Assembly: GCA_008632985.1 (NCBI GenBank)
Contig: QPGO01000015.1
Location: 803,707 to 823,706, forward strand
Source of the DNA: Psammoneis japonica
Taxonomy: Eukaryota
Length of the DNA: 20,000 bases
Reading direction: 5' to 3'
Shown: piece after piece, positions 1-20,000 of the stretch
How positions within the stretch are numbered: the first letter of the stretch is position 1
Layout of the letters: each line of letters starts with the position of its first letter
The notes under the pieces: generated by a model
The model's database searches: none
What the model saw: the letters and a program-made list of their open reading frames with translations, nothing else
What the model was told of the DNA's origin: nothing
Made by a program: the position numbers and the translations under genes

Positions 1-563
1 ATTCAGCTGACATCAGCACTGGAGGAGTCTTCAAATTTGAGTTTGAGGCCATCAGACAGACTGAAATGCTCTGCACTTGATGCTGCATGGGCTCAAATGC
101 CAGGCTGAAAATTGAGGTCAGGGCCCCATGTGGTGAGCAGCACACATTGTTGATGGGAAACTCAGAAGCAACATTTTGAGCAGCTCTGTGTGTCACATCA
201 AGTGCCTGTGTTCCATTGACTGGAGATGAGCACCATCAGCAATCACTTGCACCAACCAAGCAAAGATGCCTGTCAGCTGTGGAGCAAAAAAAGCACCTTT
301 TGCCCTGCAGCTGATCCCAACATTTGTGGGCATGTGCTGTGCAAGGCAACTCACTGAACTGGCTGCTTCATTTGGGAGCAACGCTCATGTTTTTTCCCTT
401 GCACTTGGCCACAGCACTTCCTGCAGCCACTCCTGAACAAAGACTCTGCCCAATTTGTTGCTGCCCTGCTGCTTCGACAAGCATGGTTGTCATCAGAAAG
501 AGCACAAGCATGCAGCATTGGAGATGGGATCAGACAACAGGGCAGCTTGATGATGCTCTCTGG
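1..563. other. Unidentified decayed repeat-like DNA, the left flank into which the Gypsy element inserted
   Basis: No TpA and only 2 CpG in positions 1-600. No protein motif recognised. Confidence 0.4.
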
Positions 564-954
564 TGTGCTGTGCTTGAAGAAAAATTGCAAATGAAAGCAG
601 AACAAATCATGAAAAGTGGAAAATTGCGAGATTAAATTTTGCTCTGTGATTTTGGATTTCTCCAAACAAGAAGCTCTCAATGGCCCAAAGCATTTGCACT
701 GCTCCACAGAGCAAAGGCCTTTCAGAGAATCCAGTCATGACAACAGATCATCCAGATGTGATCAACACTGACATCTCATGTGTCAACATCATCCATTGTT
801 TGCATCTGCAATTTCAGACATCAAATCAATTCTGTGTGATTGACCTGACCTTTGCATGCATCCATGATTGCCACGCAATTGACACACCTGACAACACACA
901 ATTGCAAGCACATGCACACTTTCTTCTGTTTGACAATGGACAACACATGCTGTG
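564..954 (-). repeat. 3' LTR of the Gypsy element
   Basis: Aligns along its length with 5221-5603 (shared blocks such as caaatcatgaaaagtggaaaattg, agagcaaaggcctttcaga and aacactgacatctcatgtgtcaacatcatc). Lies about 27 bp after the integrase stop codon. Ends were inferred from the alignment. Confidence 0.8.
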
Positions 955-980
955 CTTGCCTTGTCAATTGCACATGTGAG

Positions 981-3900
981 TCATTTGTCAAATGGAGTTG
1001 TTCGATGGACATTGACTGTGTTGACAATGTCACCACATTTTGATCTGCACTGTGTCATTGGTGTGCACCATTGTCATCTCATGAGGCTCAGAACAGGGCT
1101 GTTCTAATTTTTGCAAATCTTTCTCTGGCAGGATCTTTTCTCCCATGCTGCATGTGCATGGAGCCCATTGTGCATTCTCTCTGGTGTTGTTTTTGTTCAC
1201 AACATCTTGTTTTTGTTTCTGAGTGAGCTTCTGGTCAGCAATGTGTTGGGCATCAAATGTTGTGTCTCCTTTGAAGACTGGTTGTCCTGGCACAGCTTGT
1301 GCAGTGGCATGATGTGTTGAATGTGCTGCAAAGGCTGCTGCAGACAGCATCCCCTCAAATAGATTCTGTGCATCCAGGGATGGATTTTGTAAATCAAAAG
1401 TGCACAGCACATTGCCCAGCCAGCACTTGATGCACATGCTCAATTGCACCATTTGCTTGTTGACTCTGTGCAGTTGTGGGCATGCATTCAATGCCACAAT
1501 CATCTCAAACCACAGCTCTAAATTGGTGTCCAATGAACTCACTTCCATGGTCACAAGCAATTGACAACAGTCAAGGACATCTGCTCAACATGTTCTTTCT
1601 AACAACCCAGTGACAGTTGTGGATTCCTCATTTGGAATTTCTGCCATTTCAAACCATCCTGTTTGCCAAACACTTCAGGACTGGGTTTTTTCTGTGCTTT
1701 GATGCATCTTGTGTGGTCCAATGAGATCCACACATGTGGTCTTTCCCATCACGCTGATTCTGTGCACTCCTTGGGAGGCAAATGACAGCATTTCTTTTGT
1801 TTCTTCTTAAATTTCTTGCTCGCCTCACATTTTGACATGCATTTTCTCATGTTCTCATGCAATGCACTTGCCTCTGTGAAAAGTCTTTGCATGACATGTC
1901 ACATCTGACAATTTAGCGAGAATGTCTTTGACCAGTTTTTGTTCAGCATCAAGAACTTTGTGTGTCAACAGAAAGAAATCCTTGTCGCAGGATCCAGGTG
2001 CAACTTTCTCAGCCAGCTCTTTGTTGCTGAGGTTTTCCACAGGTGTTTTGTTTTCTTCACACAAGTCAACTGATCACATCTGCAATGGCACTGGCCTTGC
2101 TCCTGCTGAGACAGATCATTTCAGGACTGCACTCCTCAGTTGTCAGATGCCAACACATGACTCTGTCCATTGCAAATTCTCATTGGTGAGATTTTTGTGA
2201 TCTGTGCATGCATTTGTCTGTTGGCCAAACAGCACATTTCAGAATTGATCAAATGTTTTTGCTGTTGACAGAAGTTCTTTTCCCGCTGCAGTGTGTCATG
2301 CCTGTGCTCCATTTGGCTTGCGGCCATGAAAGTCAATGGGTCTGTTATTCTGCACTGTTGTGACTGCTCCCAATCAAAATTGCTTGCACCACCAGCACAT
2401 GTCTCAAAGAAGGGTGTGTGTTGAAATTTGGGTGTGACAATGACATGTCTTTCAACACAACTGGCTTCACATTTTTGAAAGCTTTTGTTCTGTGCCTGTC
2501 CATCGCCACTCAACCTCCTCAGATGAGGTGAGTTTGGCCAAAGGAGCAAGCACACAAGATTGTTGAGACCACATGTCTTGGTGGTGATTGATCTCACCAA
2601 TGAAACATCATTTCAGTTCCTTGCAAGTTGCAGGAGTTGCAATTGTTTGAATTGCCTCAACTTTCTTGGGCATTGGTCTGATGCCATTTTGGGTGACACA
2701 AAAGCCCAGACAGCTTGCTTCAGGCTCAGCAAAAATGACCTTTTGGCATTGACCTTCAAACTGGCTTGTTGGAACCATGTGAATGTTGTCTCGAGCTTCT
2801 TTTCACATGATCTTTGAAGTCACCTTTTGCCAGGCATGGCACCATGGCATCAGGGCAAGTTCTGACAAACTCTGGTCCTGCCATGAGCTTGCTTGTGTGC
2901 TCCTGAAAAATGTCTGGAGCTCCACAAATTCCCGTTGGAAGCCTGCAGGGCTCATGCTTGCCCCGCAGCATCACGATCATGCACAAACAATGTGTGTGTG
3001 GTGTCAACTCAATGTTGCAGCATCCCATGTTCAAATTGAGTGAGGTTGCACACATGAATCCTTCTGGTTTCTGTGGCATGTCCTGAATTTTGGCGAAAGA
3101 TGCAGAGAGCACATTGACCTTCCATCAAGCTCATGGAAGCGGCAGAAGTCAAACCAAACTCAACTGTTTTCCTTTGGGCTGAACAAAGATTGGAGCTGCC
3201 CACTCAGAATGGCCCGCTCTTCTCAGGACTCCCAACTTGCACAGTCAGTTTGCTTCCCAAGCAGTTGCCTCCAAGGCTTGTGGAACTGGAAAAGGTTTCA
3301 CATGGCGCAGAGTTGCGCCAGTGCAAGATCCACCAGTGTTCCTGTCCATTTGCCTGGAGAACTGTCAAAAAGATGTTCAGAAGAAGTTCAAATGATCCTG
3401 TTCCTCTGGGATCAGATGCCAGTCACATCATTGAGATCAGCAGCATGACAGTCAGTGTGGAGGATTTTTTGTTGATCCTGTCATTAAGACCATTCATGGC
3501 ATGAGATTCTTCAATGTGACCAGCAATCAGCTTTGACACTTTGGCTTTGAAGAGTGCATCAACATTCTTCACTGGCACAGTTGTGTCTTGTTCCCATTTG
3601 ATTTGTCTGCTCACAAAATCAAGTGTGACTCTAAGACTGCTCATCAAGTCATGTCCCACAATCATGTCATGTTGCAAAAGAAGTGGCAGCACTGTCAACA
3701 TGTGCTGTCTTCTCAATTCAACTCACACTTGTCAAATGCAGGCAGTGAGAACTGAGTGGAGAGCATCAACTGTCAGTTGTAAAGAACCTGCCCTTGGTTT
3801 CCCAAGTCTTGGTGGCAGATTTCTCATTTCTCAACTTCCACATTGATTTGCACAAAATTGTGGTTGATGATGTTCTGCTGTTGAGAAGAAAGCACAGAGG

Positions 3901-5193
3901 CTGATTTTTCTTCTCCCCCCAAGGAAGCATTCACACAAGCAGCAATGGCTGCTGGACCAGTGTGACTGCTTTGGCCCTTTCTCCAGGCTTCTTCTGACAT
4001 CCAGCAACATGCAACAAGACTCCTCAACAGGAGCCAGTTGTTCCTCAAAATTGCTGCAAGTCACTTTTTCAAACCAACTGTTTTCCTCACTGAGGATGCC
4101 TGAGTCACATTCCTCACTCTTGTCCATCTGATTCTTTGTGGAGGAACTTGTCTTCAGAGATTTGTTGGTTGCCTGAGTGATCATGAAATTCAATTCTTCC
4201 TGCCTGTTGAGAGGTGTTTTTAGCATCGCAACAAGACCATGTGGGATCGCCATTTGAACATTGCCATTTCATGTTTTGTTCAGCATTCTCTTGGCATTCT
4301 TTTGCTGGCCTGGTCTTTTGATGCCCAGCACTGGCCCACATTGTGGGTGGCTTTCTCATGATGGCTGCACCACTTGTCACAGACTCAGATCATTTGGCAC
4401 CAGATTGGCAACCATTTTTGGGACCACAATGAGATCCATTCTTGGCTTTGGAACCAAACTTGTTGGCAGTGTCAGGCTGGGCATGAGTTTGGTCAAATGT
4501 GTCCTCTCAGTGACCTCCAGGCACTTCAAGAACTCCACCAACTTGTCAAAGGCATGGTCTAAAATTTCAAAACCTTGCAGGGTTGACTGATGTTGCCATC
4601 AATGAGGTGCATGATTGCAAGCAATGTTGCAGAGCTCATCTTTGTCCAGATTCTGTTTGGACTCAAAGGGAGGATGACACTTGAAATCTTTGTCAACTTG
4701 TTCCTGCATTCAATTGGCAATTTCTTGGATCTTCACAGAGTCCAGCTTCTTGAGTTCACGTCACAGATGCATTTTCTGGCTCTGAAGTGCATTCTTGGGA
4801 AAGACATGGTCAGAGAGGCAATGATGACATTTTTCAAAGGCTCCTTCATCTTCAACATTCATTGCCTTGTTCTCAAAAACTTGCAGAGCATCCCCTTCCA
4901 ATGACCCATGCACAAGTCAGAAATTGTCAGCTTTTTCTTGATGTTCTGGTCCACCTGAGTTTGCTGAATGTTTTTGAGAATTTGATGTGCTCAAGGGACT
5001 CCCTGCTTGTTGTGGTGCACGACAATGAATGTGTGAGCACAACTCTTCTTGTCTTTTGGATGAAAACACTGCTGCATTTTGAGGTGCTGGCTTGGTTTGA
5101 GTGTCTTTGGCTCAGAAGTTGACTCCAGCGGTGCAGGTGCAATCTTCTCCGGCTTGATGGCAGACACTGGAGGCAAAAGCTTTGTTTTTGCAT
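981..5193 (-). pseudogene. Gypsy gag-pol pseudogene with many frameshifts, stops and missense changes
   Basis: Protease-region remnant HDMIVGHDLMSSLRVTLDF..IKWE (~3590-3680). RT remnants SEWAAPIFVQPK (~3170-3205) and KIQDMPQKPEGFMCATSLNLNMGCCNIEL..CRLPTGICGAPDIFQEHTSKLMAGPEFVRTCPD (~2850-3090). Integrase remnants WLGNVLCTFDLQ..AVPGQPVF..KLEQPCSEPH..VHTNDTVQIK (~1030-1430). Confidence 0.9.
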
Positions 5194-5220
5194 TTTGCCC
5201 TCTGTGGTGTGTGTGCACAA

Positions 5221-5603
5221 TGCACCATGCTCAAAGAATGAGTGCTGCAAATGAAAGTGTGACAAATCATGAAAAGTGGAAAATTGTGAGATTAAATTTC
5301 ACTCTGCAGTTTGGGGTTTCTCTGAGCAAGCTCTCAATGGCCCAAAACATTTGTGCTGCTCCTGCAGAGCAAAGGCCTTTCAGACAATCCAGTCCTGACA
5401 ACAGATTGTCCGGGTGCAACCAACACTGACATCTCATGTGTCAACATCATCTGTCAATTGCATTTGCAATTTGAGACATCCAATCAACTCTGTGTGATCA
5501 ATCTGACCTTCACCCTCATCCACCATTGTTGTGTGGCTGACATGTGTGATGACACATGACTGTGAACACATGCAATTTCTTCTGCTTGGCAATGCATGCT
5601 GCA
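5221..5603 (-). repeat. 5' LTR of the Gypsy element
   Basis: Has TG...CA ends with an imperfect terminal inverted repeat (TGCACCATGC ... GCATGCTGCA). Direct repeat of 564-954, located just upstream of the putative gag ATG at 5193. Confidence 0.8.
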
Positions 5604-8496
5604 CTGAATGTGACACATCAAATGCCACATAAAAAATCTGCAGGAGTGTGGAAAAATTCTGGGCCACAGGGCAGAGCAAATGGGTCATTTGATGATGTGT
5701 CTTTGAAGCCAGCGGGCTTTTGTCTCAAGGAAATTCTCTGCTTGCCTGCAGCCAAGCTTCCAAAAGCTGGTGGCAAGCCTGAAAGCAGGGTCCCACCATT
5801 GCCCCTTTCCATGAAGACAAGCCTCATGACAATGCTTTCTGGCTGACAACAACTGGGCAATCAACAAAAGCAATTGAGCAAACTGTGCTGTGACCATCTT
5901 TTGATGTTGGCCAGGCCAGCAACACTTGAAGAAAGTTTGGAAGCTTGTGCACCCCCCGAATGTTTTCAAAAAGTGTTCAATGGAGAAGACATGCTGACCA
6001 AGCACTCAAAAAAAGTCAGCAGCAAAGTTTTTTGAGTGTGAGCAGTTGGAGGTTGGGGTTGGTGACAGCAGCAACACACAACAAAAACTCACAGAGGTGT
6101 GTGCAGTTTGGCTGGAGAAGTCTTTTTCACAACATCAGCACCTTCTTGGTTGCTTTGCTTGGATGTGACAACAAAAAAGATGCAAGGAAACCTTCATGAC
6201 AGCCACCATCAGAGTGATGAGGCTCTTTTGCTGTTCCTTGGCCCAACAACCTCTCCCCAGCTGCGTGCTTGCAGTCACTCAGATTGTTGCCAGCAGGCCA
6301 TTTCCAGTTGTCAGGTGTGCAGCAACCCAACCACAATGTGTCTGCACCCAACAACAGCATCAAAGGACCACGTTTCTGGAAATTCTTGTCTTGGGGCTGC
6401 CAAAAAACTCAAACAGCTGCTGATGGTTTCCCCTTGCAGCAGCGCTTGAGAAAGGAGGAGCAACAGTGCTGCAACCTGGATCTGCTGCACGCGTTTTTTG
6501 TCAAAGAGATGTAAAATGGCAACATTTTCAAACATTCTCAATGGCAGATTTTACTGGCACTTGCTCTCTCAGGCCATGGTTTTCCATTTTGTTGCAAAGC
6601 CCACACTCAGGCAGGAACAGCCACCATGCAGAGCACATTTGGTTCAAGTGGTTGGCACAAGCCCTTTCAAACTGAAGACAAGCTCCACGTTTTTGAGCAA
6701 GCTGGTTTTTGTTTCTTGAATCAAGATCATTTTGTTTCTTGCCAGCACTGTGTGCAACAAGTGGAGTTTGCACTCTGTCATCAAGAACAGATGATGCAGT
6801 CTTTGGCTCATCATGGTTGGGAAACTTCAGCAGCTGGCAGCTCTTGGAGCACAGATGCATTGTGCACTGTGCTGGTCCTGCACAAACAACTGCAAAAATG
6901 GCTTGATGACCATGCAAATGCTCCAGAGTTCAGCACACTGGGTTGTCCCAGCTTGCCTCCATCAGACTGCACACAGGTGTGTTTGTTCTTCATCTGCACT
7001 CTCCCACCAAAATTGGGCCATTTTTTTAATGTGAAAGGCAAGGAAGCCTGGCAACACTGGTCTGGGGATCAAAAAAAAAAGAAAAAAGTGCAATCCCCGC
7101 CCATGTGTTCATCTGCTTGCTGCTCATGCTTGTCATCCAGAAGCTGAGAGTGCTTGGAAATTGGCGCCATTGCCACTCATGCTTTGCCAGTTGATTGCAA
7201 CACATGTGCACAACATGTGCCACACACTGAGATCATCAGAGAACCAGCATCTTCAACAATGCATGATGGAGCCCCAGCTGGCCTGCCAAAGGGTCCATCT
7301 GCTTCTTTGCAGCACGTGTGATGCCATCTGCCATAATTTTTTCTGTTTGAAGCCCCACTCTTGCTCCACACATGCTGCTTGATTTGCCTCAGCTGGCAAA
7401 GTGGCAATGGGTCAAAAATGCCCCACATGAGAATCTAACTTGCAGTTCCTGCAATCCATTTTGAGCAGGCAGCAAGTGTGCGGGTCCAGACAGATGATGA
7501 TGGCTCTCACAACAGGTGCCTGAGAAAGCAGCAAGAAAGTTGTTGTTTGCACCATCAATGCTGCTTTTCCCTCACATGCACCATGTGGGTGTCAAGTGAC
7601 AGAACCACTCCTGTGACAAGGTGGCTGGCAACAAGATGCCCAATTTGAACAAAACTTTGTCAGCTCAGCCAGCTTGACATGATGATGCCTCTTCCATTGT
7701 CACATGTGACAGAAGCTGAGCATTGTTGCTGGCAAGAAATGCCCTCACATCATGCAGCGCAGCTGCTTTTGACTTTTCAGCCCCCAGTCAGGTGCTGCTC
7801 TGGCATGGTGGCAGGGGATTGTGGAACAGAGGAAAAAAAGAAAGAGGTGGCACTTCATTCAGAAGCCAGTCAAGACATCACCCCATTTCAGCATCAATGT
7901 TTTTGAGCCAAATTTTCCATCAACGTGCAGTCCTCCATTCCTCCATGAGGAGTCTCATGTGCTCTGATCCCACCTTGATGCCCACAACCACTGCTGCCAG
8001 AGACATCTCCACATGCCACAAGCTGTCGTGCACTGTTGCTGTCATTGGGGTTGATGGGGAATGCAAAAAAAGGCTGCCCACTTTTGAGGAAAATCTCTGA
8101 TCATAAGATCTGCCAACAGAGAGGCAACTTTGTTGCCAAAAATCTGTGTCTCATCCACAGTCAAAAGAGAAGGTGTGCCACCAGCTGTCACTCTGTGTGG
8201 CTCTGACAGCATGATGGTGGCACTTTTTCAAATGACAACTGATCACAAGGGCTCAATTTGGCACACCCAGACAAGCAAAAAGACTGCATGGCACTCAAAG
8301 CTCAAAGCTTGGAAGAAATGGTGAGAGATCAGCCTGCAGACCACCATTGCTGGCAATGAAACCTTGGCCTTGACAGAGCCATGGCATCAACATGTGCAAG
8401 CCAGTTCTCCTTTTGTCTTTCTGTCACAGCATTTGAGCTCTTCCAGAATGTGAAAAGCCTCATGTTGGTCTTGTTGAGACACACAGCTGCAAATCT
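5604..8496. other. Unidentified decayed sequence, probably coding or TE-derived; includes a residual + strand frame at ~6269-7147
   Basis: Same TpA/CpG depletion. ORFs 6269-6514 and 6626-7147 are in the same frame, separated by one TAA, and read as protein-like when Cys/His are reverted to Tyr. Family not recognised. Confidence 0.4.
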
Positions 8497-9945
8497 TCTT
8501 GGAGTGTTGGGGTGAGAGAGGTGATTTTCACAGGACAGGCAGACAGCATTGCAGTGAAAGACATGCCGGTGATTGTGGATGATGTGGCATGTTTTCATTC
8601 ACAACTTGGGTTGGGTCATGGGTCTTGTGCTCACTTTTCAGCTTCTGCACCAGGTCATCACAGCAATGGTGGTTGACAGCATCATTGGAAATGTGTTTGC
8701 AAGCCATGCAATGAGTTTGGGGTCAGTGAGACCAAACACACACTGGTCAGCAAGCCACGAAACTTCAACACAGAAGCCAAAGAAAGCTGTGGCACAATGC
8801 TCAAAGGAGTGGCATCATTCAAAGACCAGGAAGTCATCAGCAACACAATGAGGTTGTGTTGAGCCAGGACAATGTGGGCAAAAAGAAGGATGCAGCTGAG
8901 TGTGGAAGCACAAAAGATTCAAAGGAGTGTGTGTGTGATGCCATTGCTAAGTTGAGACAACAGGCAGATGGTCACAAGGAAACCACAAGGAAGATCAGCA
9001 AGCATGTTGGAAGAATGTTTGGGCCAAAGATGCAGGCACTGGCATCTCTGAGGCAGGAGAGCATGCCAAAAGAGCTGGAGCATCCATCAGGAGATGCTGC
9101 ATCAGAGAAGGACAAGGCAATCTGGGGCAAGCAACATGATCAACACAATGTGAAACAGAGGAGTGACAGAGTTTGCAAGAGTTTTAAAATGATGAGAAGT
9201 GGCAGTGCAGCTGGAAATTCTCAAGTCAGTTTTGTTCAATGCAGGTGAGAAAACACACTTGCATGTCCAGGCAGTCAAGGCTTGAAAGCAGTTGGTGGCA
9301 CTCATTCATCAAGATGAAGGAGAGGTGCTTCAAGATTGTTGCAATCGGCTCACGAGCATTTTTGAGATGGCGGAAATATCCTGTGGGAGAGCCATCCCAG
9401 AAAAAATCACCAAGAAAGAAGAAGGGTTCAGCAAGGATGCTGATGACACCTGAGTCAAAGAAGAAAGAAACAAGTTGTCAGCAGCAGCACCAATTGAAGG
9501 TGCCAAGGAATGTTGGCATGTCTTGCGGTCTTGAAAGACCTGCATTGGCAGTTTGTGCTGGGGGTTGATGATTGCCCCAATTTGGCTAAGGACAAGGAAC
9601 GCAGGTGTTGGGCACATGTGGAGCCAGAAAGAAGCCTGAGAGCAGCACAAGTTTTGTGCAGAATGAGAAGAAGCAGAAATGTGAAAAGGTTGGGATTGTG
9701 AAAAGGACTGTCCTTCTTTGCTCAACGATGAGGACAATGATCATTCATTGGCAGAGTCAGATGATGTGGGCCACAGGAATCAGCGGAGTGGTCAAAGTGG
9801 CATTGGATGGCATGGTTTCCAAGTGTCATCCTCCCATGCTTGATGTGCATGAAGCCAGTCAATCGAAAGCTCATTCGAAGGAGTGTGTTGGAACATTGGG
9901 GTGAGAAGGGGCAGTTTTCGCAGGACAGACAGACAGCATTAGAGA
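8497..9945 (+). mobile_element. Decayed, internally deleted (gag-only) Ty1/copia element of diatom CoDi type
   Basis: The LTR start is repeated at 8497 (tcttggagtgttggggtgagagaggtgattttcacaggacaggcagacagcatt) and 9886 (tgttggaacattggggtgagaaggggcagttttcgcaggacagacagacagcatt). A purine tract GAAGGAGTG lies directly before TGTTGG at 9886. Gag-like peptide QQADGHKETTRKISKHVGRMFGPKMQAL..SEKDKAIWGKQHDQH, then STSFVQ and SGIGWHGFQ; no pol domains. The right end is uncertain. Confidence 0.65.
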
Positions 9946-10282
9946 TCAAAACCCATCATCTGATTAACATCACACTTCCTGTCATTACAGGAATTTGCAG
10001 ATTGTTTAACCTGCTCCTTTCAGCCTGTTCCCTGCTAGCCCCAACTATGTCTTTGCGGCACTGAAGCGAAAACAATGGAAAGTGTTGAACATTGTCGAGA
10101 GTTGAACTGGACCATTGTAGTGCTCAGGCGAATCATGCTGTCTTGTCATCAAACCAAGGGTCTGACTCTTTCAATATTATGCACTTCTACTCACTACAGT
10201 ACAGACAAGTCTTGAAGAACGAAAACGATTAAAACTTTTCTTCAGACTGCATTCTGCTTCTAGAGTCGCCAACGGTCACTTG

Positions 10283-11095
10283 TCACTTGGCCCCATGAGC
10301 TATACCTGCTTTTGAAATGACCCAAATATCCTTTAAATCTCGATACAGTTCATTGTAGTCCAGTCCATAGCCGATTATAAAATGGTTTGGAATCGTAAAT
10401 CCCGTGTACTTCGCCCTGACTTTGGGCGGGCTACTTAGCCGCTTTTCCAGAAGCGAAACGACTTGCAGCGACTTGGGCGAGCCATTTTTCTGGAGGGCGG
10501 GCAGTAAGTGCGAGAGGGTGGTACCTGTGTCCACAATATCTTCTACCACCAGCACATGTTGGTCTTTCAAGTTCGCGTAATCCAGTCCACCACTTACAAT
10601 TTTCCCCGAGGAATTGGTTCCTTCGTAAGATTTTGCTCGAAGGTATTCAGTTTGGTAACCATGTTTCAGTTCTTGCAGAGAATCCAGCAAATGCTGACAG
10701 AACTATGGAAAAAGAACGCGCTCTTTTAATATTCTGACACTCGTTTTGAGAAGAAACAGCGCTCATCTTTTACACTGTCGCACGTACCGGAGCGGCGCCT
10801 TTAAGCACGCAAACCACGAGGAGTCTCTCGCTGCCGTAATCCTCGTGAATCAACTCAGCCAAATCCTTGATTCGATTTTTTATTTGTTCGTGCGTGATCA
10901 TGACACTGGCCAGATGACCTTTGTACTCAGCAGGTGATTCGAATTCCTGCAATCCAAAGAGCGGTTTGTGAGAACAACCACAAACAACGGAACATTGCAG
11001 AAGATTTCAACCCATTTCGCAGTGCTCACCGACGGATCATGTCCTAGGTTTCCATCTAGGATCGCAACTGGAGCGTAACGCTCTTCGATAGACAT
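10283..11095 (-). CDS. HPRT: Hypoxanthine-guanine phosphoribosyltransferase, 3 exons (11095-11030, 10946-10788, 10702-10283), 214 aa
   Basis: Motifs VCVLKGA, PRPP-binding VLVVEDIVDTGTTL and FIIGYGLDYNELYRDL. Two phase-0 GT-AG introns (GTGAGC..TTGCAG and GTACGT..CCATAG) join the three ORF pieces in frame. Confidence 0.95.
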
Positions 11096-11354
11096 GCTTC
11101 TCTTATCCTTCTCTTAGTAGGGTCCACAAGCTTGGTCTTTTCTTTATCGTTCTCTTTTTTTCAATTTTTTCTTGTGTTTTTTTGCCAGCTGCCGCCGACC
11201 GGATGATAATTTTATACTATTAATAACATGAAAATCCAAAATATGAAGTGCGCTACCGCTCCTGATGAGCACGTTGTTATTCTGGTATCGAGACATACCG
11301 GTACAGTGTACAGTTGACCGTATCAGCATTTGAGATTTGAGAGTCGTTGTCCCG

Positions 11355-11560
11355 GTCTAGAGTAGAGGGCCCCGTCTACTTCTGCTCTATCTCTACAATA
11401 GTACCGGGCTATTCTCTCTCCACAATACTAGTAGCTAGTTGCTAAGCTAGCTACTTGAGCTAGCTATGAACCAGTAGTAGCTACTTCTACTCGCTTTCTC
11501 TAGAGCTATTCTCCAGTAGCTCTATTCTCTAGCTAGAGCTAGAGAGAAGGCCCTACTATC
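11355..11560. repeat. Low-complexity CTAG/TAG/AGCT-rich intergenic tract
   Basis: Dense interspersed tag/cta/ctag/agct words, e.g. tactagtagctagttgctaagctagctacttgagctagcta. No fixed period. Confidence 0.7.
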
Positions 11561-11678
11561 TGGTGCCGAGGTTTCTGCGAACTTGGACGGCCTATTCTTT
11601 CGCGATCGATCATGATCTCGCGTCGTTAAATGGCTAAGTAGTACTTCGGGCGTGCTGTAATCTTGCGTAGGAACTAGA

Positions 11679-13349
11679 TCAATCGAATGGATGCGATGCT
11701 TCCTTCTGAAGTCTGATGACACGCGACATAACTTCCCGCGCTTCGTCCGATACCGTGTTCAACAGCTTCTTTTTGCGACTTCTCCGCTCCACTAGCTGCT
11801 CAATCTGCTTGTCCGACGGCTTCTTCCCGTCACTGGGAAGCCCTGGCACTTCACTGGTTACAAAATCGAACTCGTTTCGTTGGTCGTCGTTTTCAAAAGG
11901 ACAGTCCTCCAGCAACCTTCGTATTTCCTCCAAAATTTCACTCTTGGAAGTAAAAGTCAGAGATGTTGCACCCAGGCTCACTTCTGCGCCTCTATGAGTC
12001 TCAGTATCTGTTGATACTACCAGCGTGCGTCTTCCTCGAGCACCTTTATTTGGTATTCGACCACCGTTCGAGCATTCCCACTCCAAGACACAACCGATTG
12101 GTAAATGATCGCTTGGCATGATTTTACTTGGAAGTCCACTCTCCAGAATACACCGCCGTTCGTCATCAGAACGCAACATTTTCTTCAACGCAGTAACATG
12201 AAGGGTAGAGCCACTGTACCAAATCTGATCCAAACCTGCAACAGGGTGCCCTGGTCGTGCAGCGTACGTAAAGTGCTCCCTTGGATTTTCTCGACCTAAA
12301 GCACTTGGAAGGCCGACGTCATGTTGTTTTCTTTATATGGGTGAGATGGGACCGCCTCAATCTCCGAGCCAGGCACGGGCGTGCCCCACTCCATAATGGG
12401 CTCGGTCACTTCAAGCTCGGTTTCGTATTCAAGAATGACACCTGGCAGTGCGAGAGCCATATCACCGGACACGTGCGAGATTCTTTGCTTCTTGTGTTGT
12501 GGAGGACAATAGCCAACTTTGAGGTAGGTAGTACATGCTGACGACTGCAGTTCGCAGTTGAAATCTCCACAGACGATCAGCCCGTTCAACACAGCGTGAC
12601 GCCTCGACAAATCTCTCATTGCATGGTGAAGCTGACGAACACGAGCAGAAGACTTCAGTGGGTGTCCTTCCAAATGACAATTGACCACCGCCACGTAAGA
12701 GGAGTTGGTGTTACCGCCGTCGCTATTCTGCTGGAGAACCGTAGCCAGAGTGCGGCTGCGTGCAAGATACTCGAACTTTGAGACTGGCTGAAATCTTGCA
12801 GCTTTCCAAAACGTAGCAACCAAATGAGCTCGGGGAGACTTTTCCGACTTTCTCTTTCTGCTATCTTTTACTCTATCGTCTCCCTGGATAATCGATTCAT
12901 ACCCCATGGACGTCAAAGCGGGCGCAATGTCCCTCGTGAAGGCTTCTCGCTCCACCTCTTGGAGGCAAACAATGTCTGCTCCGGCATCTTCAATCATATG
13001 CAGGATCCTTCGACAGCGATCAGGCCATGTTAGTCCTTTGGCGTCCTTTGGCGTCCTTTGGGATGTGTTCATAGAACGTTCGGGTTTGTCTGCTGTTGTC
13101 AAAGAGTGCCTGGGAAAGTATGTTCCAGCTCATAATCGACAGCGGCCCTGCACCTTCTGCGCTTCGTGCGTCCAATACGAGGTTATCCACCCAGTTAAGC
13201 GCCTCTTTCTCAGAATATCTGACAGCTTTATATCTTGAAAGTAGCTTTCCTTTATGATCGTGTTGATAGGACACGAAGCACCTTGATTTCGGGGGTAGTA
13301 TGAGCGAGAGTGCAACGGTCACGAAGCCGAACTTGATGTGAACCATCAT
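11679..13349 (-). pseudogene. EEP-superfamily (CCR4/nocturnin/PDE12-like) nuclease/phosphatase broken by two frameshifts (disrupted allele or assembly error)
   Basis: Motifs SIMSWNILSQ, DIVCLQEV, VVNCHLEG, IVCGDFNC, LDQIWY and MPSDHLPIG are spread over three ORF pieces. The breaks are a 10-bp tandem duplication at 13033-13062 and an apparent 1-bp deletion at ~12307. Confidence 0.85.
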
Positions 13350-14206
13350 AATATATTGAAGATGTGCAGAGGTATCCAAGACAAAAGACAGCGAAGATCA
13401 CAGGTTGATCTCGTCTTCATTCAAGAGGTTGTTTATCCGCCATGGCGGCGGCGGCGCTAGCGTACGCACAGCACAAACAACAGAGAAAAGGGAAAGTAGC
13501 GCCAAATCAAAAAAGATACACGGAGATGAAGACGGTATCTTCTTCAATCTTGCCGCGCTTTTGAGTCGCGAGTTTGGTAGCGATCCCAGTCGTGAAGAAA
13601 TCACTTTCTCACTCTTCTACGTACAACAACTGTTTGGTTGTAAGATGAGGAAAGAGAGTAAAGTTCCGGCAACTCGAAAGGGCCATTTGCAAAGGATTGG
13701 ATAGCTCAAATATCCGAGTCGAAGTTAGGGCAGCAGCCACTGGTATTGCGATTTATCCCACAGGAGTTCGGTCGATGCAAGTACTTCTATCTATGGTAGT
13801 TGTGTATCCTCGCTGGCGGCTGCTCGCATGTGGCACAAACAGCAAACAAGGTACGATGAAGAAATAAGTAATGAGAAGTGATATTTGCTATTGGTCGGCA
13901 GATACTGGCACACATTGAAGAGATTGCCAGAATAGACCCATCGCGTGGAGAGACACGAAAGCACGGTTGTAACAGCTTTCCTCTGTCTAAAGAGAAAAGC
14001 TCTGAAGCAAAGGTTACACTCTCGCATCTCTTTGAGAGAGCAAGTGCGTTGACCGACACGATGACGACACCAGTGTGGTACTTAAGGTATACCGGTAGCT
14101 AGCTTCAGACTCGTGTAACAACTGTTATCCGAATGGAACTTCCCATGGTCACCGTCATCAAAAGGATCATTATGAAAGTGTCCTGTATTGCAATTAATGA
14201 GCTACT

Positions 14207-15519
14207 CTAATACCAACCATTCTGTCTCCTTCGCCGACCATATGCACCACGGACGGCGCCATATCCGAGTCCAGCAAGACCCATGTGTCTCATGCCTCGT
14301 CCGCGATTCCCTCCAACGGCATTGATCACCACAAGAGCCGTGAACGGATTTATATTATTCTTGTGGCAGATATAGACAATGCCACCAATAAAGAGGATTG
14401 ATGTGAAACTTCCGTCAAAGAGGTGGGAAAAACCAAACGAAGGTCGCGTATTGCGACGTCTTGGACGATATTGATATTCATAGCCATCCTGATAGTCGCC
14501 ATAAACATTCCGCCGTTGCTCACTATTCGACCCATAATGGCTATTTGTTCGACCATGGAAGCGATCATAGGCATTTCCTCTCTCATAATTGCCTCTGTTC
14601 TCATGATTGTTCTTCCCGAAAAAGTAATCCATGCCAAAACGCCCACCAAATGCAACGTAAAGGACAATGATTACCACCAACACCCTGAGAAAGGTTTTTA
14701 TGTCCTCAGGTTGTCCATCATACCACGCAACAGCACGAGAGATGCCAAACTTGATCCGATCTGACAAAGTAAACGATTCGTCAACAGTATTCTCTCGCAA
14801 AGGATCGTCAACACCATCATAATCAGGTGGCGCAGTAGCTGTGCCACCGCTGCTGGCCATGTTGTCACTTGAAGCACGATAGGAGGTCGCTGGTGATCTA
14901 ACACTATCTTCATCATCCTCTTCAGGTGGGGCAGACGGAACGGGATGGTGACGGTCACGTCGTAACTCACGCATCAACATCTGTCTTGCAGTCGGATTTC
15001 CGGGATCGAGTGCTAGAGCACGCTGTAGTTCGTTACACGCATCATTCGAATGACCCCCAAGCTCGATATAGGCAGAGGCAAGTCTGATGTGTGCCTTTGC
15101 CCATGAAGGATTTAAGGCTATGCACTGAGAAACCCAAAAGCGAACGAAATTCTTGAGCTTGACACCACGTGTCGTTTTCAGACGTGGACATCAGAACAAT
15201 CAATACGTACCTGCTTCGCTTCCTCGACAGCGGCTTCTGCTTGAACAACTCCTCCTAACTTGAGACGACATGCAACTAAACGAAACGAAAAGATTAGAAT
15301 GGCTACAGTGCAAGACATGGTGAGGATGTACAGAAACATACCAACGTTTGACAGAATGACCTGACGCTCCGAGGTTGGAATGCCGTACTCTGGGTTCAGC
15401 GCAGCTCGATATGAAGCCAAAGCTTCCAAATATTCTCCTCTTTCAAACTGAGCCTTCCCAAGGTCCTTGTGTCCTATCCATGTATTTGGTGTAGACTGTG
15501 ACGGCGGCGGGTTCCTCAT
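14207..15519 (-). CDS. TPR-domain protein with C-terminal hydrophobic (TM) segments and an Arg/Gly-rich tail; 3 exons (15519-15342, 15275-15211, 15124-14207), 386 aa
   Basis: TPR helices [68 protein letters not shown] and LQRALALDPGN. GT-AG introns give an in-frame product. Hydrophobic stretches FLRVLVVIIVLYVAFGG and FTSILFIGGIVYIC. Confidence 0.88.
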
Positions 15520-15620
15520 GGTCGTGGCTTGAACGAAACGAAAGAAAGTGAGCGAGAGCTCGAGCGAGAAAAACGCGATAGAGAAAAAGTACCAAGGGAA
15601 TCACGTACTTTTCTACATAC

Positions 15621-16061
15621 TGAGAAAGTTGGTGCATTTCGCAGTACATACATTAGTTCGTTTGTCTGACAGTTTCAACATCGATGTGCTTCATAGACGG
15701 AACCCGGACGCTGAATTGCTGTGACCCTCCGGAGCCAGAATTTTTTTACCACGACAAAACCACGGCCTCTGACGACAGTCACGAGTCAACAACCGAGTCT
15801 GATTCACGGATGACGCTCCCGGTCATGGATCTCTTCTTCCGGAAGAAATGTCCGTTGAGTCTTCTAGCGATAGTAATCGGAGTGACACACACGACCGTTA
15901 GGTCATAATGTCATCTCCAATCCCTCGTGAGATCTTCTCACAATTCGTATCTTTAGCGTATCTTATTGTCCCAAACCCACTTCTTATCATCCTCTGTTGC
16001 ATTGTACAACCTCAAGAGAGTCCTGAACTCTCCATCCTACACAGTGCATTGTTGTATCCCA
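15621..16061 (+). repeat. Putative 5' LTR of the copia element
   Basis: Starts TGAGA and ends TCCCA (near-inverted TG..CA ends), followed by a PBS-like TGGTTACGACCCCA. The second LTR is not in the window, so the start cannot be verified. Confidence 0.45.
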
Positions 16062-16063
16062 AG

Positions 16064-16077
16064 TGGTTACGACCCCA
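16064..16077 (+). promoter_or_regulatory. Putative primer-binding site
   Basis: TGGTTACGACCCCA lies 2 nt after the CA end of the putative LTR and resembles copia-type (T)GGTTA.. primer sites. The cognate tRNA was not identified. Confidence 0.5.
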
Positions 16078-16146
16078 ATCCACGCACCGGCATCAACTCG
16101 CAACGGAGTTGCTGCCACTCGTTCGTCTCGTTACAGACGACATCCC

Positions 16147-16202
16147 ATCCAACGGCAATCTTCTATGTCGCAATCCAACGGCGATCATCTGTGTCGCAAT
16201 CC
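16147..16202 (+). repeat. 26-bp tandem repeat (2 copies plus 4 bp) in the copia 5' leader
   Basis: atccaacggcaatcttctatgtcgca / atccaacggcgatcatctgtgtcgca. Confidence 0.85.
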
Positions 16203-16243
16203 CCACCCACTAATCGATCCTCTGTGTCGAATCATCCACAACC

Positions 16244-19200
16244 ATGTCCATGGATCCTGATGCCGTCAAGATGTTTGCTGAGGCCTTTGCCAAGATGCAA
16301 ACCTCGACCAACCCTCCTGCGATCCCCACGCCGCTTCGCGGCGGCATCCACCACTCTCATGGAGTGCATCTGGGTGGTTCGGCTCTGAACAACAAGTGCG
16401 AGCAGACCGACACCCGCACCTGCCGTTTTGCCTCGCAACGTCGCCATCCGAAAGCTGTCGACTCCATCGAGCGATCTCTCAGAGATCAACTCGCTTCGGC
16501 AACCACATCCAAGTTCAACGGCCAGATTGAGTTATCCAACAGTTCCAGCACTGAACTGGACAAAGACCACTTCGTCAAGACCATTCAGGACTCAATCGAG
16601 TCGCACGGACAAGAAACTTTCTGCCATCTCAAGAAAGTCGACGGCAAGGTCGTGTGCCTTTTTGATCATCTTCACGCCTTCACTGTCAAAGACCTTGAGA
16701 AGGAATGTGAGACCCGTGTGGCGGCTACAGGTGACGAAGGCTATGATCAGTGTGAAATCGATGACATCGGCTTGTCACAACTCATCGTCAAGTCGTGCAT
16801 CACCGAAACCTTCCGTGAAAAGATTGAAACCAAGTTTAATCACTTGAAGAACCACAAGGATCTTCCGGGGTCTGTCTCATTTATGATGGCTCTGGACACC
16901 TGCAACGCCAGTGCTCTGGTTGACGTCAAGGCCGCCAAGGAAAAGTTGAACGACTTAACTCTGGATGGCTGCCCTGGCGAAGACTGCACCGAGCTTGCAA
17001 CCGAAGCTCTGCGCCTGCTCAAGATCATGCAGACGGACTGTGCGTCACCAGTTGAAACTGGGTCTGCCATTTTATCTAAGGCATCAAAGACATCCTCCGA
17101 GTTTTTCAATCGTCAAGTTTTTGCCAAGCTCGACTCCGTCAAGCGCTTGGAGCGCAAATGTCGCTTGCGTGACCCGGCAGAAGTCCCCAAGGATGCCGAC
17201 CACGCGGATCTTGGACCTGTTGGCCTTGTTGGCTGGATCACCAAGACCCATGGCGAACTCATTAGCGATGAAGATTGGCCTGCCTTAGCAGCCAAGCTCC
17301 CGGAATCCAACCTCGCCAAGGACAACTTGGAAAAGCATTGCTGCGGCTGTGGCAAGGTTGGGTGCACCAAACGCACGTGTCCCACCTGCAAGGAGCAATG
17401 CAAGAAGGACAAAAAGGGCGCGGCGGACAAGTCCAAGGATGACCCTCCGGATGTCCGGAAGACTAACCCTTCCAAGAAACCACCCAAGCCGGCCTGGCGT
17501 TTCGTTCACAAGGGTGCCACTGTCACCGACGAGAAAGGCACGACCTGGCACTGGTGCGACAAGTGTGTGAACAAGGAAACGGGCAAGAAGGGCATGCATC
17601 AAGGCCACTCCTCTGCTCAACACACCGGGAAACCGTCTGTCAACACCGACACCACCGCTGCGGCAAATTTATCTGCTGTGTCGGACCCCTCTTTGGGCAT
17701 TCCTTTTGGTCCTCCCGAGCAGACGACGTCTCCGCCTACAGACGAACCCTCTGACCCTGACGAGCTGGTTTATTGCGGCATGTGGTGTGCACCTGTGGAC
17801 GACTCTTTGAGTTCGACTCCAGTGACTACGACCGTCTCGTTCACTCCTGCTCCATCGGCCGAGAGGGAGACCACCGTGGCCAAACCCGCTCCCATCTTGG
17901 TTGAAACGGTTGACCCCGAAGACGCTGACGATTGCTCCGAGTGCTCCGATGCTCACTCCTCTTTTGACTCCCTACCGTCAGCTGTCGAGCTATTTCCGGC
18001 CTGTGCTGTGCACGAGATTCAAAATCCGGACGTGTTTTATGACACGATCGCAACTCACGTGGAAGGTCTGTCCGACGATGTGTTAGACGATCTCGTTTCC
18101 GGGGCAAGCATCCCACCTTTCGAAGACAGCTACGAGCACTTACCTCCAAGCACCCAGCATCGCGGTTTCGAATTTTACGATCCCGAACCCCAAGATGTTG
18201 ATTGTAGCGTCGAGGAGGCAACGCCGAGCTCTCGTCTTGAGCTTTTCTGGAACTTCTTGAAGCTCCGAGTTTTCTGGCTGTTTGCCATGTTCTGGGAAAC
18301 GGCACCACACATTTGCTGTGCGCCGATTCCTGTCTTACCTCGTCGCACACGCCGTAAGGCATTCATCCCAACCATTCACGGTTTCCCCTCTACCTGGATG
18401 GTGCTGACTGGAGCTGTCATGGTCTGGGCGTCTGTTTTCAACGGTCAGCTTCCCACGTGTCCATTCTCCAATGTCCCTTCTCGCTTCTCCAAAGCTAGCT
18501 CTCAGGTCCACTCGATCATTGAAGAACTGGACGATAAGACAGTGTTAGATCCGGGCAGTTTGGTGGAATACAACAAGATCAAGGCGCGACAAGTGCTTGC
18601 CGAATTTGTGGAACGCGATCCGGACCATTGTCTGAGCAAGAAATTCACGCAGCTCTGGGAGAACGACGCATGCTCTTCCCCAGGCCGCTGCATCCCTCCA
18701 GCTCTAGAAGACCTCGAGTCCTGCTTCGACACCTGTGATTCAGAGGAAGCCCTCGGCCCACTCCCGACCGAGCCGAGCCACTACTTTGATGCGGTTGAGG
18801 AGCTCTCTCCGGACTATTTTCGTTTCGACGAGCTGTCCACCAAGTTTGGTTTTGTGGACACCACTCCATGGCAAGACCCTGTGAAGCTTCTCCAGGCAGC
18901 TGCTGACGGAACCGAAGCCCATCCTACTCATACCTCTATGCAGGTGTTGACGGGCCAACGTTCTTTAGCACAACTCGCCGCCGACCCGCAAGCTTTGCTG
19001 AGCCCAGCACATGAGCGCCACACCGTCACATGCGACACTGGCGCATCCTCAGCCATTGCTTGCGATGAAAACGACTTTGTCGGACCTCTGACGATCCCTG
19101 ATGGCCCATTGAAGCTTGGGGGTCTAGCAAATGGCTTAACCATCGCCGGCATCGGACCCGTCTCCTGGGTTTTCCACAACGAGGACGGCTCTGAGCTTGT

Positions 19201-20000
19201 CGTCAAGACGATGGCGCACCATGTGCCTCAGGCCGGACAATGTCTTCTATCCCCACAATGCCTCTACAGCAAGGAACATGGCGTGACAGGAAAACATGAG
19301 GGAGACGAGGACTCATTTCGAGTGCANNNNNNNNNNNNNNNNNNNNNNNNNNNNNNNNNNNNNNNNNNNNNNNNNNNNNNNNNNNNNNNNNNNNNNNNNN
19401 NNNNNNNNNNNNNNNNNNNNNNNNNNNNNNNNNNNNNNNNNNNNNNNNNNNNNNNNNNNNNNNNNNNNNNNNNNNNNNNNNNNNNNNNNNNNNNNNNNNN
19501 NNNNNNNNNNNNNNNNNNNNNNNNNNNNNNNNNNNNNNNNNNNNNNNNNNNNNNNNNNNNNNNNNNNNNNNNNNNNNNNNNNNNNNNNNNNNNNNNNNNN
19601 NNNNNNNNNNNNNNNNNNNNNNNNNNNNNNNNNNNNNNNNNNNNNNNNNNNNNNNNNNNNNNNNNNNNNNNNNNNNNNNNNNNNNNNNNNNNNNNNNNNC
19701 CAGGCCAAGCCGTCAGCGTGGATCACTTCGAATCCCGTCTCCTCGGCCGAACCTGCGACTCCTGCGGGAAGGCCTCGTCCCAGCAATGCAAAGGAGGCTG
19801 CATTTTTGTGGATCATGCCTCCGGTTACCTGCACATTGAACACCAACTTGGTTTCTCTGCTGTGGAAACGGTGCGAGCGAAGCAAGCGTTTGAAAAGCAC
19901 GCGATGGACCACGGCGTCATCATCCAAGAATTTCTTACCGATTCTGGCGCTTTCAAGGCCAATGCTTTTGTGCAACACATGCGACAGCACGAACAACGTC
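16244..20000 (+). CDS. Copia Gag-Pol polyprotein, 3'-partial; frame open but missense-damaged
   Basis: Starts at ATG 16244 (MSMDPDAVKMFAEAF). Contains Gag with Cys knuckles CCGCGKVGCTKRTCPTC and WHWCDKC..H..H, protease DTGAS at 19034, LLSPQ, and integrase core PGQAVSVDHFES..IFVDHASG..LTDSGAF from 19700. All are in the same frame. The ORF is absent from the supplied track, consistent with no stop before the window end. Confidence 0.9.
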   Translation, partial: MSMDPDAVKMFAEAFAKMQTSTNPPAIPTPLRGGIHHSHGVHLGGSALNNKCEQTDTRTCRFASQRRHPKAVDSIERSLRDQLASATTSKFNGQIELSNSSSTELDKDHFVKTIQDSIESHGQETFCHLKKVDGKVVCLFDHLHAFTVKDLEKECETRVAATGDEGYDQCEIDDIGLSQLIVKSCITETFREKIETKFNHLKNHKDLPGSVSFMMALDTCNASALVDVKAAKEKLNDLTLDGCPGEDCTELATEALRLLKIMQTDCASPVETGSAILSKASKTSSEFFNRQVFAKLDSVKRLERKCRLRDPAEVPKDADHADLGPVGLVGWITKTHGELISDEDWPALAAKLPESNLAKDNLEKHCCGCGKVGCTKRTCPTCKEQCKKDKKGAADKSKDDPPDVRKTNPSKKPPKPAWRFVHKGATVTDEKGTTWHWCDKCVNKETGKKGMHQGHSSAQHTGKPSVNTDTTAAANLSAVSDPSLGIPFGPPEQTTSPPTDEPSDPDELVYCGMWCAPVDDSLSSTPVTTTVSFTPAPSAERETTVAKPAPILVETVDPEDADDCSECSDAHSSFDSLPSAVELFPACAVHEIQNPDVFYDTIATHVEGLSDDVLDDLVSGASIPPFEDSYEHLPPSTQHRGFEFYDPEPQDVDCSVEEATPSSRLELFWNFLKLRVFWLFAMFWETAPHICCAPIPVLPRRTRRKAFIPTIHGFPSTWMVLTGAVMVWASVFNGQLPTCPFSNVPSRFSKASSQVHSIIEELDDKTVLDPGSLVEYNKIKARQVLAEFVERDPDHCLSKKFTQLWENDACSSPGRCIPPALEDLESCFDTCDSEEALGPLPTEPSHYFDAVEELSPDYFRFDELSTKFGFVDTTPWQDPVKLLQAAADGTEAHPTHTSMQVLTGQRSLAQLAADPQALLSPAHERHTVTCDTGASSAIACDENDFVGPLTIPDGPLKLGGLANGLTIAGIGPVSWVFHNEDGSELVVKTMAHHVPQAGQCLLSPQCLYSKEHGVTGKHEGDEDSFRVXXXXXXXXXXXXXXXXXXXXXXXXXXXXXXXXXXXXXXXXXXXXXXXXXXXXXXXXXXXXXXXXXXXXXXXXXXXXXXXXXXXXXXXXXXXXXXXXXXXXXXXXXXXXXXXXXXXXXXXXXXXXXPGQAVSVDHFESRLLGRTCDSCGKASSQQCKGGCIFVDHASGYLHIEHQLGFSAVETVRAKQAFEKHAMDHGVIIQEFLTDSGAFKANAFVQHMRQHEQR
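19327..19699. other. Assembly gap (373 N)
   Basis: Run of N inside the copia pol. Confidence 1.

Follow-up and report, generated by a model that had tools for sequence, protein, structure and literature searches.

Can a retrotransposon be crippled by mutation while its reading frame stays free of stop codons? The question arises from a 20,000-nucleotide stretch of the genome of the diatom Psammoneis japonica (contig QPGO01000015.1; the whole stretch is termed here the window, and all coordinates follow its numbering, plus strand unless stated otherwise), the right-hand end of which holds a copy of a Ty1/copia-type retrotransposon with a long open frame and few TpA dinucleotides. We consider it probable, with real room for doubt, that this is one copy of a multi-copy family of diatom long terminal repeat (LTR) retrotransposons that was hit, after insertion, by a process directing transitions to TpA, likely through adenine deamination. 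TpA would become TpG by change on one strand and CpA by change on the other; the change would fall on the DNA copy after its insertion, and its cause would be targeted base editing, the most plausible form of which is a deamination at TpA that turns adenine into inosine. It would be of the same kind as the process measured in Bigelowiella natans, where integrated viral DNA is the target. Because conversion of TpA to TG or CA cannot create a stop codon, such a copy would be crippled by missense changes with its frame left open. The chemistry, the timing and the proposition that TpA loss generally precedes the decay of CpG are the parts of this account that we infer.

The frame in question is single and runs from 16244 to 19999 on the plus strand (1252 codons). 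Freedom from stops and frameshifts, claimed for all of it in an earlier reading of the letters (hereafter the original prediction), is demonstrated for 16244-19326 and 19700-19999, the two sides of 373 N that fill 19327-19699; the frame is identical on both sides provided that the N run has its true length. This N run within the polyprotein frame was absent from the original prediction.

In the readable part (16244-19326), TpA occurs 41 times against 157 expected (observed/expected 0.26; 0.15-0.33 taken per kb) and CpG 203 times against 230 (0.88; 0.82-0.94 per kb), with TG at 1.34 and CA at 1.16 of expectation, just as had been claimed of abundant CpG alongside damaged TpA: some two-thirds to three-quarters of the expected TpA has been lost, and CpG is nearly intact. 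Host DNA to the left (10100-15694) carries 266 of 388 expected TpA (0.69) and 307 of 312 expected CpG (0.98), and the integrase-core part at the far end (19700-20000) has 2 of 15 expected TpA. The codons of the readable frame include no ATA and no GTA, 9 TAT or TAC, 39 TGT or TGC and 39 CAT or CAC. That change from TpA to TG or CA is unable to turn a sense codon into a stop, as the original prediction had reasoned, was borne out by enumeration over all sense-codon pairs, which returned 0 cases; change from CpG to TG makes TGA from CGA. The signature of repeat-induced point mutation (RIP), that is, C to T at CpA with an excess of TpA, was not found: TpA is depleted, and GC is raised to 55%.

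What was lost with these dinucleotides can be read from relatives of the encoded protein. An exhaustive HMMER search (E ≤ 1e-3) returned 951 relatives, and the comparisons below are drawn from the best 150 of these 951, which are 30-56% identical to the window protein and cover its gag-like residues 19-528 and its protease residues from about 840 to 1027. The window protein contains 0.9% Tyr and 3.8% Cys, these relatives 3.4% and 2.1%. A query-anchored alignment gave 339 columns that are at least 8 deep and have a majority residue, 19 of them with a Tyr majority, and at these 19 the window has Tyr once, His nine times, Cys seven times and Phe twice, while every other type of conserved residue is retained at 40-100%. 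In a second alignment, of 29 relatives with the window left out of the vote, there were 11 Tyr-majority columns (window: one Tyr, one Phe, five Cys, three His and one other); in the 29 relatives 38-94% of these columns still hold Tyr, and no more than one holds Cys. The window is the extreme member both among these 30 aligned sequences and among 18 gag DNAs. Such comparisons show that nearly every conserved TAY codon has given way to TGY (Cys) or CAY (His), with TTA, ATA and T|A codon-boundary sites altered likewise and both strands hit about equally. At 104 conserved columns the window mismatches its relatives: 22 mismatches are compatible with one step from TpA to TG or CA (13 to CpA, 9 to TpG), 4 with a step at CpG and 11 with a transition of some other kind, and the remaining 67 are transversions or need several steps.

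The original prediction had picked out 16 residues as replacements of ancestral ones, and most of these, although not all, stand up to the comparison, in which relatives have Tyr, Leu, Ile or Thr where the window has Cys or His, Ser, and Thr or Ala. Eleven are backed by relatives (C127, H128, C243, T929, S936, A939, H992, H993, the Cys of DSCGK, the Cys of QCKGG and the Met of QHMR, this last by one relative only). Two are ambiguous, namely H336 (Tyr in 36 and His in 32 of 69 relatives) and C940 (Pro in 11, Phe in 8, His in 7 and Tyr in 4 of 32), and three are not backed: H121, where relatives themselves have His (35, with Tyr in 13, of 57); C930, where they have Phe (30 of 32) and no Tyr; and the Cys of GRTCDS, where they have Leu, Phe and Phe.

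Relatives from the environment lead to the same contrast at the level of DNA. A metagenome scan yielded 17 loci with the gag DNA of relatives, in which observed/expected TpA is 0.37-0.76 (window 0.20), Tyr content 2.6-5.4% (window 0.4%) and Cys content 0.7-2.5% (window 3.8%), so that the window is extreme on all three counts; judged from these sequences, the family as such is not simply TpA-poor. Seven of the loci (L005, L009-L012, L015 and L017) have CpG at 0.09-0.40, five of them with stops, and a normal content of Tyr. These CpG-poor relatives represent ordinary methylation-type decay without the TpA process, and because they keep their Tyr, CpG decay and TpA loss can be told apart. Decay of 5-methylcytosine (CpG to TpG or CpA) yields the same TG and CA products in the same class of target, as seen in these environmental relatives and in an old block at 1-9940 of the window, but in the present copy CpG stands at 0.88 and TpA at 0.26; the separation of the two processes that had been proposed from the sequence thus holds.

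Sister copies of the element are found in a public run, X1, whose contigs we placed on 13000-19326 at a likeness of at least 85% and which contains 52% of the window's exact 31-letter words. Altogether 781 contigs fit (253 at 99% or more, 304 at 95-99%, 176 at 90-95% and 48 below 90%). Word depth is 57 on the flank and sums to 900-6900 on the element, a depth sum and not a copy number; the sum stands at 6000-6900 from about 15743 and drops to about 2500 after 16165. A single-copy contig matches through 15694, and loose contig ends lie at 15695-15746. The raised depth between 15695 and about 16165 is consistent with an LTR. Clearly, the family exists in many copies that have diverged from one another. 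Positions are given for 40 of the 52 places that differ between X1 and the window, and 25 of these 40 fall inside the element. Once the single-copy flank (13000-15694) is counted in, transversions number 3 and transitions 47 (12 each of A>G, G>A and T>C, and 11 of C>T). Inside the element every one of the 25 is a transition, and together they resolve into 19 events, 12 of TpA type, 6 of CpG type and 1 other. The 12 TpA-type events consist of six TG/CA doublets, four sites with TG or CA in the window and TA in the sister, and two with TA in the window and TG in the sister. Four sites illustrate these differences:

Residue 320: window CAC (His); sister TGT (Cys); relatives Tyr in 68 of 74.
Residue 452: window CAT (His); sister TGT (Cys); relatives Tyr in 11 of 20.
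Residue 936: window TCA (Ser); sister TTA (Leu); relatives Leu in 31 of 31.
Residue 979: window CAC then AAC (Asn); sister CAT then GAC (Asp); relatives Asn in 23 of 32.

At these sister-variable doublets and single sites, relatives thus indicate Tyr, Leu and Asn, and the alternative states lie in separate X1 contigs at depths of 470-1550. Every copy, on this comparison, bears its own subset of TpA-derived changes. Cys, His and Ser residues of the window stand against Tyr or Leu in relatives and, at the variable sites, against the other outcome or TA in sisters, and the spectrum of change is enriched at TpA, with 22 TpA against 4 CpG steps among conserved columns and 12 of the 19 sister events. 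The original prediction thereby survives the test that it had set for itself. Since sisters also differ at six CpG-type sites, CpG decay is under way; we estimate a rough per-site ratio of TpA to CpG change of about 4:1 for this copy (12 events over about 100 ancestral sites, against 6 over about 200). With this, the observation of a TpA-eroded, open copia frame is confirmed, and these comparisons support the core reading of it as a putatively TpA-specific change to TG and CA, distinct from CpG decay, that inflicts missense damage and leaves the frame open. That the copy is young, and that TpA loss is faster or earlier than 5-methylcytosine decay, is what we infer from this one copy.

A more advanced state of the same loss may be visible at the other end of the window. 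In positions 1-10000 TpA numbers 29 where 720 would be expected and CpG 55 where 537 would be, with TG at 1.79 and CA at 1.93, and the edge of this erased block is sharp: near 9940 the spacing of TpA passes from about one per 350 nucleotides to about one per 20. Pfam searches with 38 of the 71 stop-to-stop frames of at least 70 residues in 1-10600 matched nothing within the block (the same scan identified a host phosphoribosyltransferase at 10286-10600), and tblastn with the best 150 of the 951 relatives against 1-16000 gave no match. Direct repeats at 571-975 and 5228-5630, about 4657 nucleotides apart, are 79% identical; they mismatch at 82 positions, of which 66 are transitions and 36 belong to 18 CA/TG doublets. 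The repeats may represent the LTR pair of a single old element, diverged in situ, and the block at 1-9940 is probably very old transposon DNA, which would represent the end state of the TpA process, fully erased, with CpG decay added. Read in this way, the block supports change in place.

As a kind, the process has already been described, and what is new here is the host lineage (a diatom) and the class of target (a copia-type element). Sections of a preprint on mutation accumulation in B. natans (Mettrop et al., bioRxiv 10.64898/2026.01.13.699255) report that two integrated viral regions received 231 of the 302 nuclear mutations that arose de novo, that these 231 were, with one exception, A>G or T>C changes, each of those on TpA, that the mutation rate there was about 6e-7, and that reverse-transcriptase and DDE domains are overrepresented among TpA-poor coding sequences; the agent proposed is an ADAT2-like deaminase. 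By that account the two cases share the conversion of TpA to TpG or CpA on either strand, the restriction to foreign or repeated DNA with host neighbours untouched, and the rise of CpA and TpG. B. natans, however, is a rhizarian, its targets are giant-virus and virophage insertions, and its de novo mutations were observed directly, whereas here a multi-copy copia-type element is affected in a diatom (a stramenopile), the evidence is comparative only, and the older neighbouring block has also lost CpG. Signs of the Bigelowiella type found here are the 16 of 19 Tyr columns that are now Cys or His, the excess of TpA over CpG steps (22 to 4) and among sister events (12 of 19), and the loss of TpA with a rise of TG and CA (TpA 0.26 in the frame, 0.69 in the flank and 0.04 in 1-10000, where TG and CA reach 1.8-1.9).

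RIP, known from ascomycete fungi, offers a second comparison: it converts CpA to TpA (C to T), so that TpA and AT content go up and stop codons arise. Common to both is a burst of dinucleotide-specific transitions that disables repeats, on both strands, and spares single-copy genes; the difference is that here TpA is destroyed, GC goes up, and stops are impossible. To our knowledge, no RID-type enzyme and no link to a sexual cycle is known for the diatom case.

Several points weigh against a post-insertion, TpA-directed process. Its timing is read indirectly, the window ending before the 3' LTR. The TpA spectrum comes from this copy and the X1 contigs, with the sister-copy differences resting on 40 of 52 differing places. 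The 67 transversional or multi-step mismatches among 104 are plain divergence, as expected at 40% identity, and the relatives that supply the consensus are only 30-56% identical. Depletion is weaker in the presumed LTR and leader (15695-16243: TpA 18 of 34 expected, 0.52, against 0.26 in the frame; CpG 37 of 32, 1.16), and 11 TTA codons remain although ATA and GTA are at zero, which means that loss was uneven or that codon usage contributes. Moreover, the portions consulted of a mutation-accumulation study of Phaeodactylum tricornutum name CG, CC and TG as mutable contexts and do not report TpA hypermutation (PMC6604790).

The same sites might instead have been hit before integration. In this account, modelled on the APOBEC/ADAR hypermutants of retroviruses, RNA or cDNA would have been edited at UpA or TpA during one or a few cycles of retrotransposition and the copy would have been dead on insertion. 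It would accommodate a copy that is young by ordinary measures (open frame, intact CpG) yet heavily changed at TpA, as well as copies that differ from one another, since editing lineage by lineage would produce these too; a U before the edited A, in addition, is preferred in ADAR-type editing (bioRxiv 10.64898/2026.01.13.699255, in the sections cited above). Editing of a single strand, however, would not give similar numbers in both directions (13 CpA and 9 TpG; His 9 and Cys 7), the Bigelowiella process, according to the same source, works on resident single-copy DNA, and the block at 1-9940, having lost 96% of its expected TpA and holding repeats that differ by 18 CA/TG doublets, fits change in place. 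We judge damage before integration to be unlikely, if still deserving of some weight. Far less probable is a lineage natively poor in TpA and Tyr, through codon usage or selection on UpA, with a functional copy at this locus: coding DNA is generally TpA-poor, relatives get down to a TpA of 0.37, and the element's GC of 55% exceeds the 37-47% of relatives, but 18 of 19 columns have lost a conserved Tyr that the 29 relatives retain at 38-94%. The Leu beside the protease active site, present in 31 of 31 relatives and kept as TTA in sisters, is Ser here; sisters have Cys where this copy has His; and the window protease lacks the match to Pol_BBD that four of four relatives tested show, one of them weakly.

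Misreading of modified bases at TpA during base calling or assembly would place the changes outside the genome altogether. Modified bases can give systematic consensus errors in some long-read assemblies, and the platform of neither the window's assembly nor X1 is on record. Yet 52% of the window's exact 31-letter words recur in X1, whose contigs were assembled from repeated exact words with a depth of 57 on the flank; at 13 sites and one gap in 2695 nucleotides this flank departs from the window, and it therefore represents a different haplotype or assembly; and the alternative states occupy separate, deeply covered contigs. Error at a symmetric site would also not erase TA and CG almost wholly, as 1-9940 requires, and we find an artefact barely credible. 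Two narrower candidates were set aside: ADAR-type editing of double-stranded RNA as the sole cause, on the strength of strand symmetry and the precedent on resident DNA, and selection against UpA, given the loss of conserved residues.

Should TpA-directed change after insertion be the right reading, its bearing would extend beyond one locus. Measured so far in one chlorarachniophyte, and there on integrated viruses, hypermutation of TpA to TG or CA would range into a second major marine algal lineage and onto ordinary transposons, which would support the idea of genome defence over that of a one-species peculiarity. A wider proposal, on which we are evenly divided, is that diatoms have a RIP-like defence running in the opposite chemical direction: A-to-G editing at transposon TpA, shared with Bigelowiella and possibly old in the stramenopile-alveolate-rhizarian (SAR) lineage, which would kill elements by missense, mainly through Tyr, before CpG decay. 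The long frames left open by such a defence would pass in annotation pipelines for intact transposons with the potential for activity. In such genomes an open frame would not equal an active element, and the load of Tyr-to-Cys/His changes together with TpA content would be better indicators. The signature is also a concrete one for an enzyme hunt in diatoms, which include transformable model species. Our literature searches found no report of TpA hypermutation in diatoms, and a term search of the paper on diatom copia elements (Maumus et al. 2009, PMC2806351) found no mention of TpA, dinucleotide or hypermutation.

The layout of the element, as far as the window carries it, is as follows:

15695-16243, plus strand: start of the repeated element; presumed 5' LTR and leader, the inner end of the LTR not being fixed (from X1 contig depth, loose ends and sequence).
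16147-16172 and 16173-16198: tandem pair of 26-nucleotide units in the leader.
16244-19326, plus strand: readable gag-protease open frame of 1027 codons, with TpA depleted and CpG kept.
16298-17827, plus strand: conserved gag region, residues 19-528 (best stretches of relatives P0003-P0034, and column profiles).
17339-17380, plus strand: gag zinc knuckle, about residues 366-379 (column profiles).
18941-19324, plus strand: aspartic protease region, about residues 900-1027 (matched by relatives P0035, P0052, P0081 and P0133).
19034-19048, plus strand: protease active-site motif DTGAS.
19327-19699, no strand: run of 373 N in frame, at the place occupied in relatives by the gag_pre-integrs (integrase zinc-finger) region.
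19700-20000, plus strand: first 100 codons of the integrase core, in the same frame and running off the window (local phmmer against relatives).

Assignment to the Ty1/copia type is suggested by the order of gag, protease and integrase core in one frame and by copia-type domains in relatives; reverse transcriptase and RNase H would lie beyond base 20000. Pfam searches with the first 1027 and last 100 residues of the window copy gave no match even at E ≤ 1. Relatives that span the protease carry Pol_BBD (PF22936) followed by GAG-pre-integrase (PF13976), the latter between protease and integrase core; P0035 is above the cut-off for both, and other relatives are near or below it. Three of the protease-spanning relatives extend into the window's last 100 residues, which local phmmer matched to P0133 at 148 bits and to P0081 at 54 bits, and in this integrase-core part the window has Cys at two sites where relatives have Tyr. 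A weak zf-CCHC match was found in one relative, P0025. The zinc knuckle of the window copy reads C-X2-C-X4-C-X4-C, whereas His is the commonest residue at the third position in relatives (His in 14 and Cys in 4 of 32). In the leader, three differences separate the two tandem units, among them CA/CG and TA/TG, and the A that sisters have at 16191 restores TA.

With the diatom Ty1/copia (CoDi) elements, as described in parts of PMC2806351, the copy shares a diatom host, gag, protease and integrase in one frame, and the copia-type protease and pre-integrase domains of its relatives; the CoDi groups are defined there by similarity of the reverse transcriptase, which lies beyond the window here. 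Searching a protein collection with the polyprotein returned nothing near full length, one shorter match at 48% identity and no proteins of sister copies in that collection. Each of 10 relatives checked forms a single-member cluster.

Between the erased block and the element lie host genes. One, at 12296-13102 on the minus strand, encodes an endonuclease/exonuclease/phosphatase protein for which all 12 relatives with a named organism are diatoms, the best being from Cylindrotheca and a Bacillariaceae genome at 45-47% identity, which backs the diatom host presumed in the original prediction; a protein-atlas search with this gene yielded the endonuclease/exonuclease/phosphatase family alone. Closer to the element, a contig from a further run, X2, skips 15125-15210 (86 nucleotides) and 15276-15341 (66 nucleotides), whose CT..AC ends correspond to GT..AG on the minus strand. 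These spliced joints (15124/15211 and 15275/15342) indicate that the host gene adjoining the element is spliced and expressed and that X2 is RNA-like; X2 contigs gave no cover on the element, which has no bearing on the element's expression. At the insertion point itself, the single-copy X1 contig continues past 15694 with 56 letters foreign to the window, and the insertion may be absent or different in the haplotype or strain of X1. Seven of the differences between the X1 flank and the window are clustered at 14899-14912.

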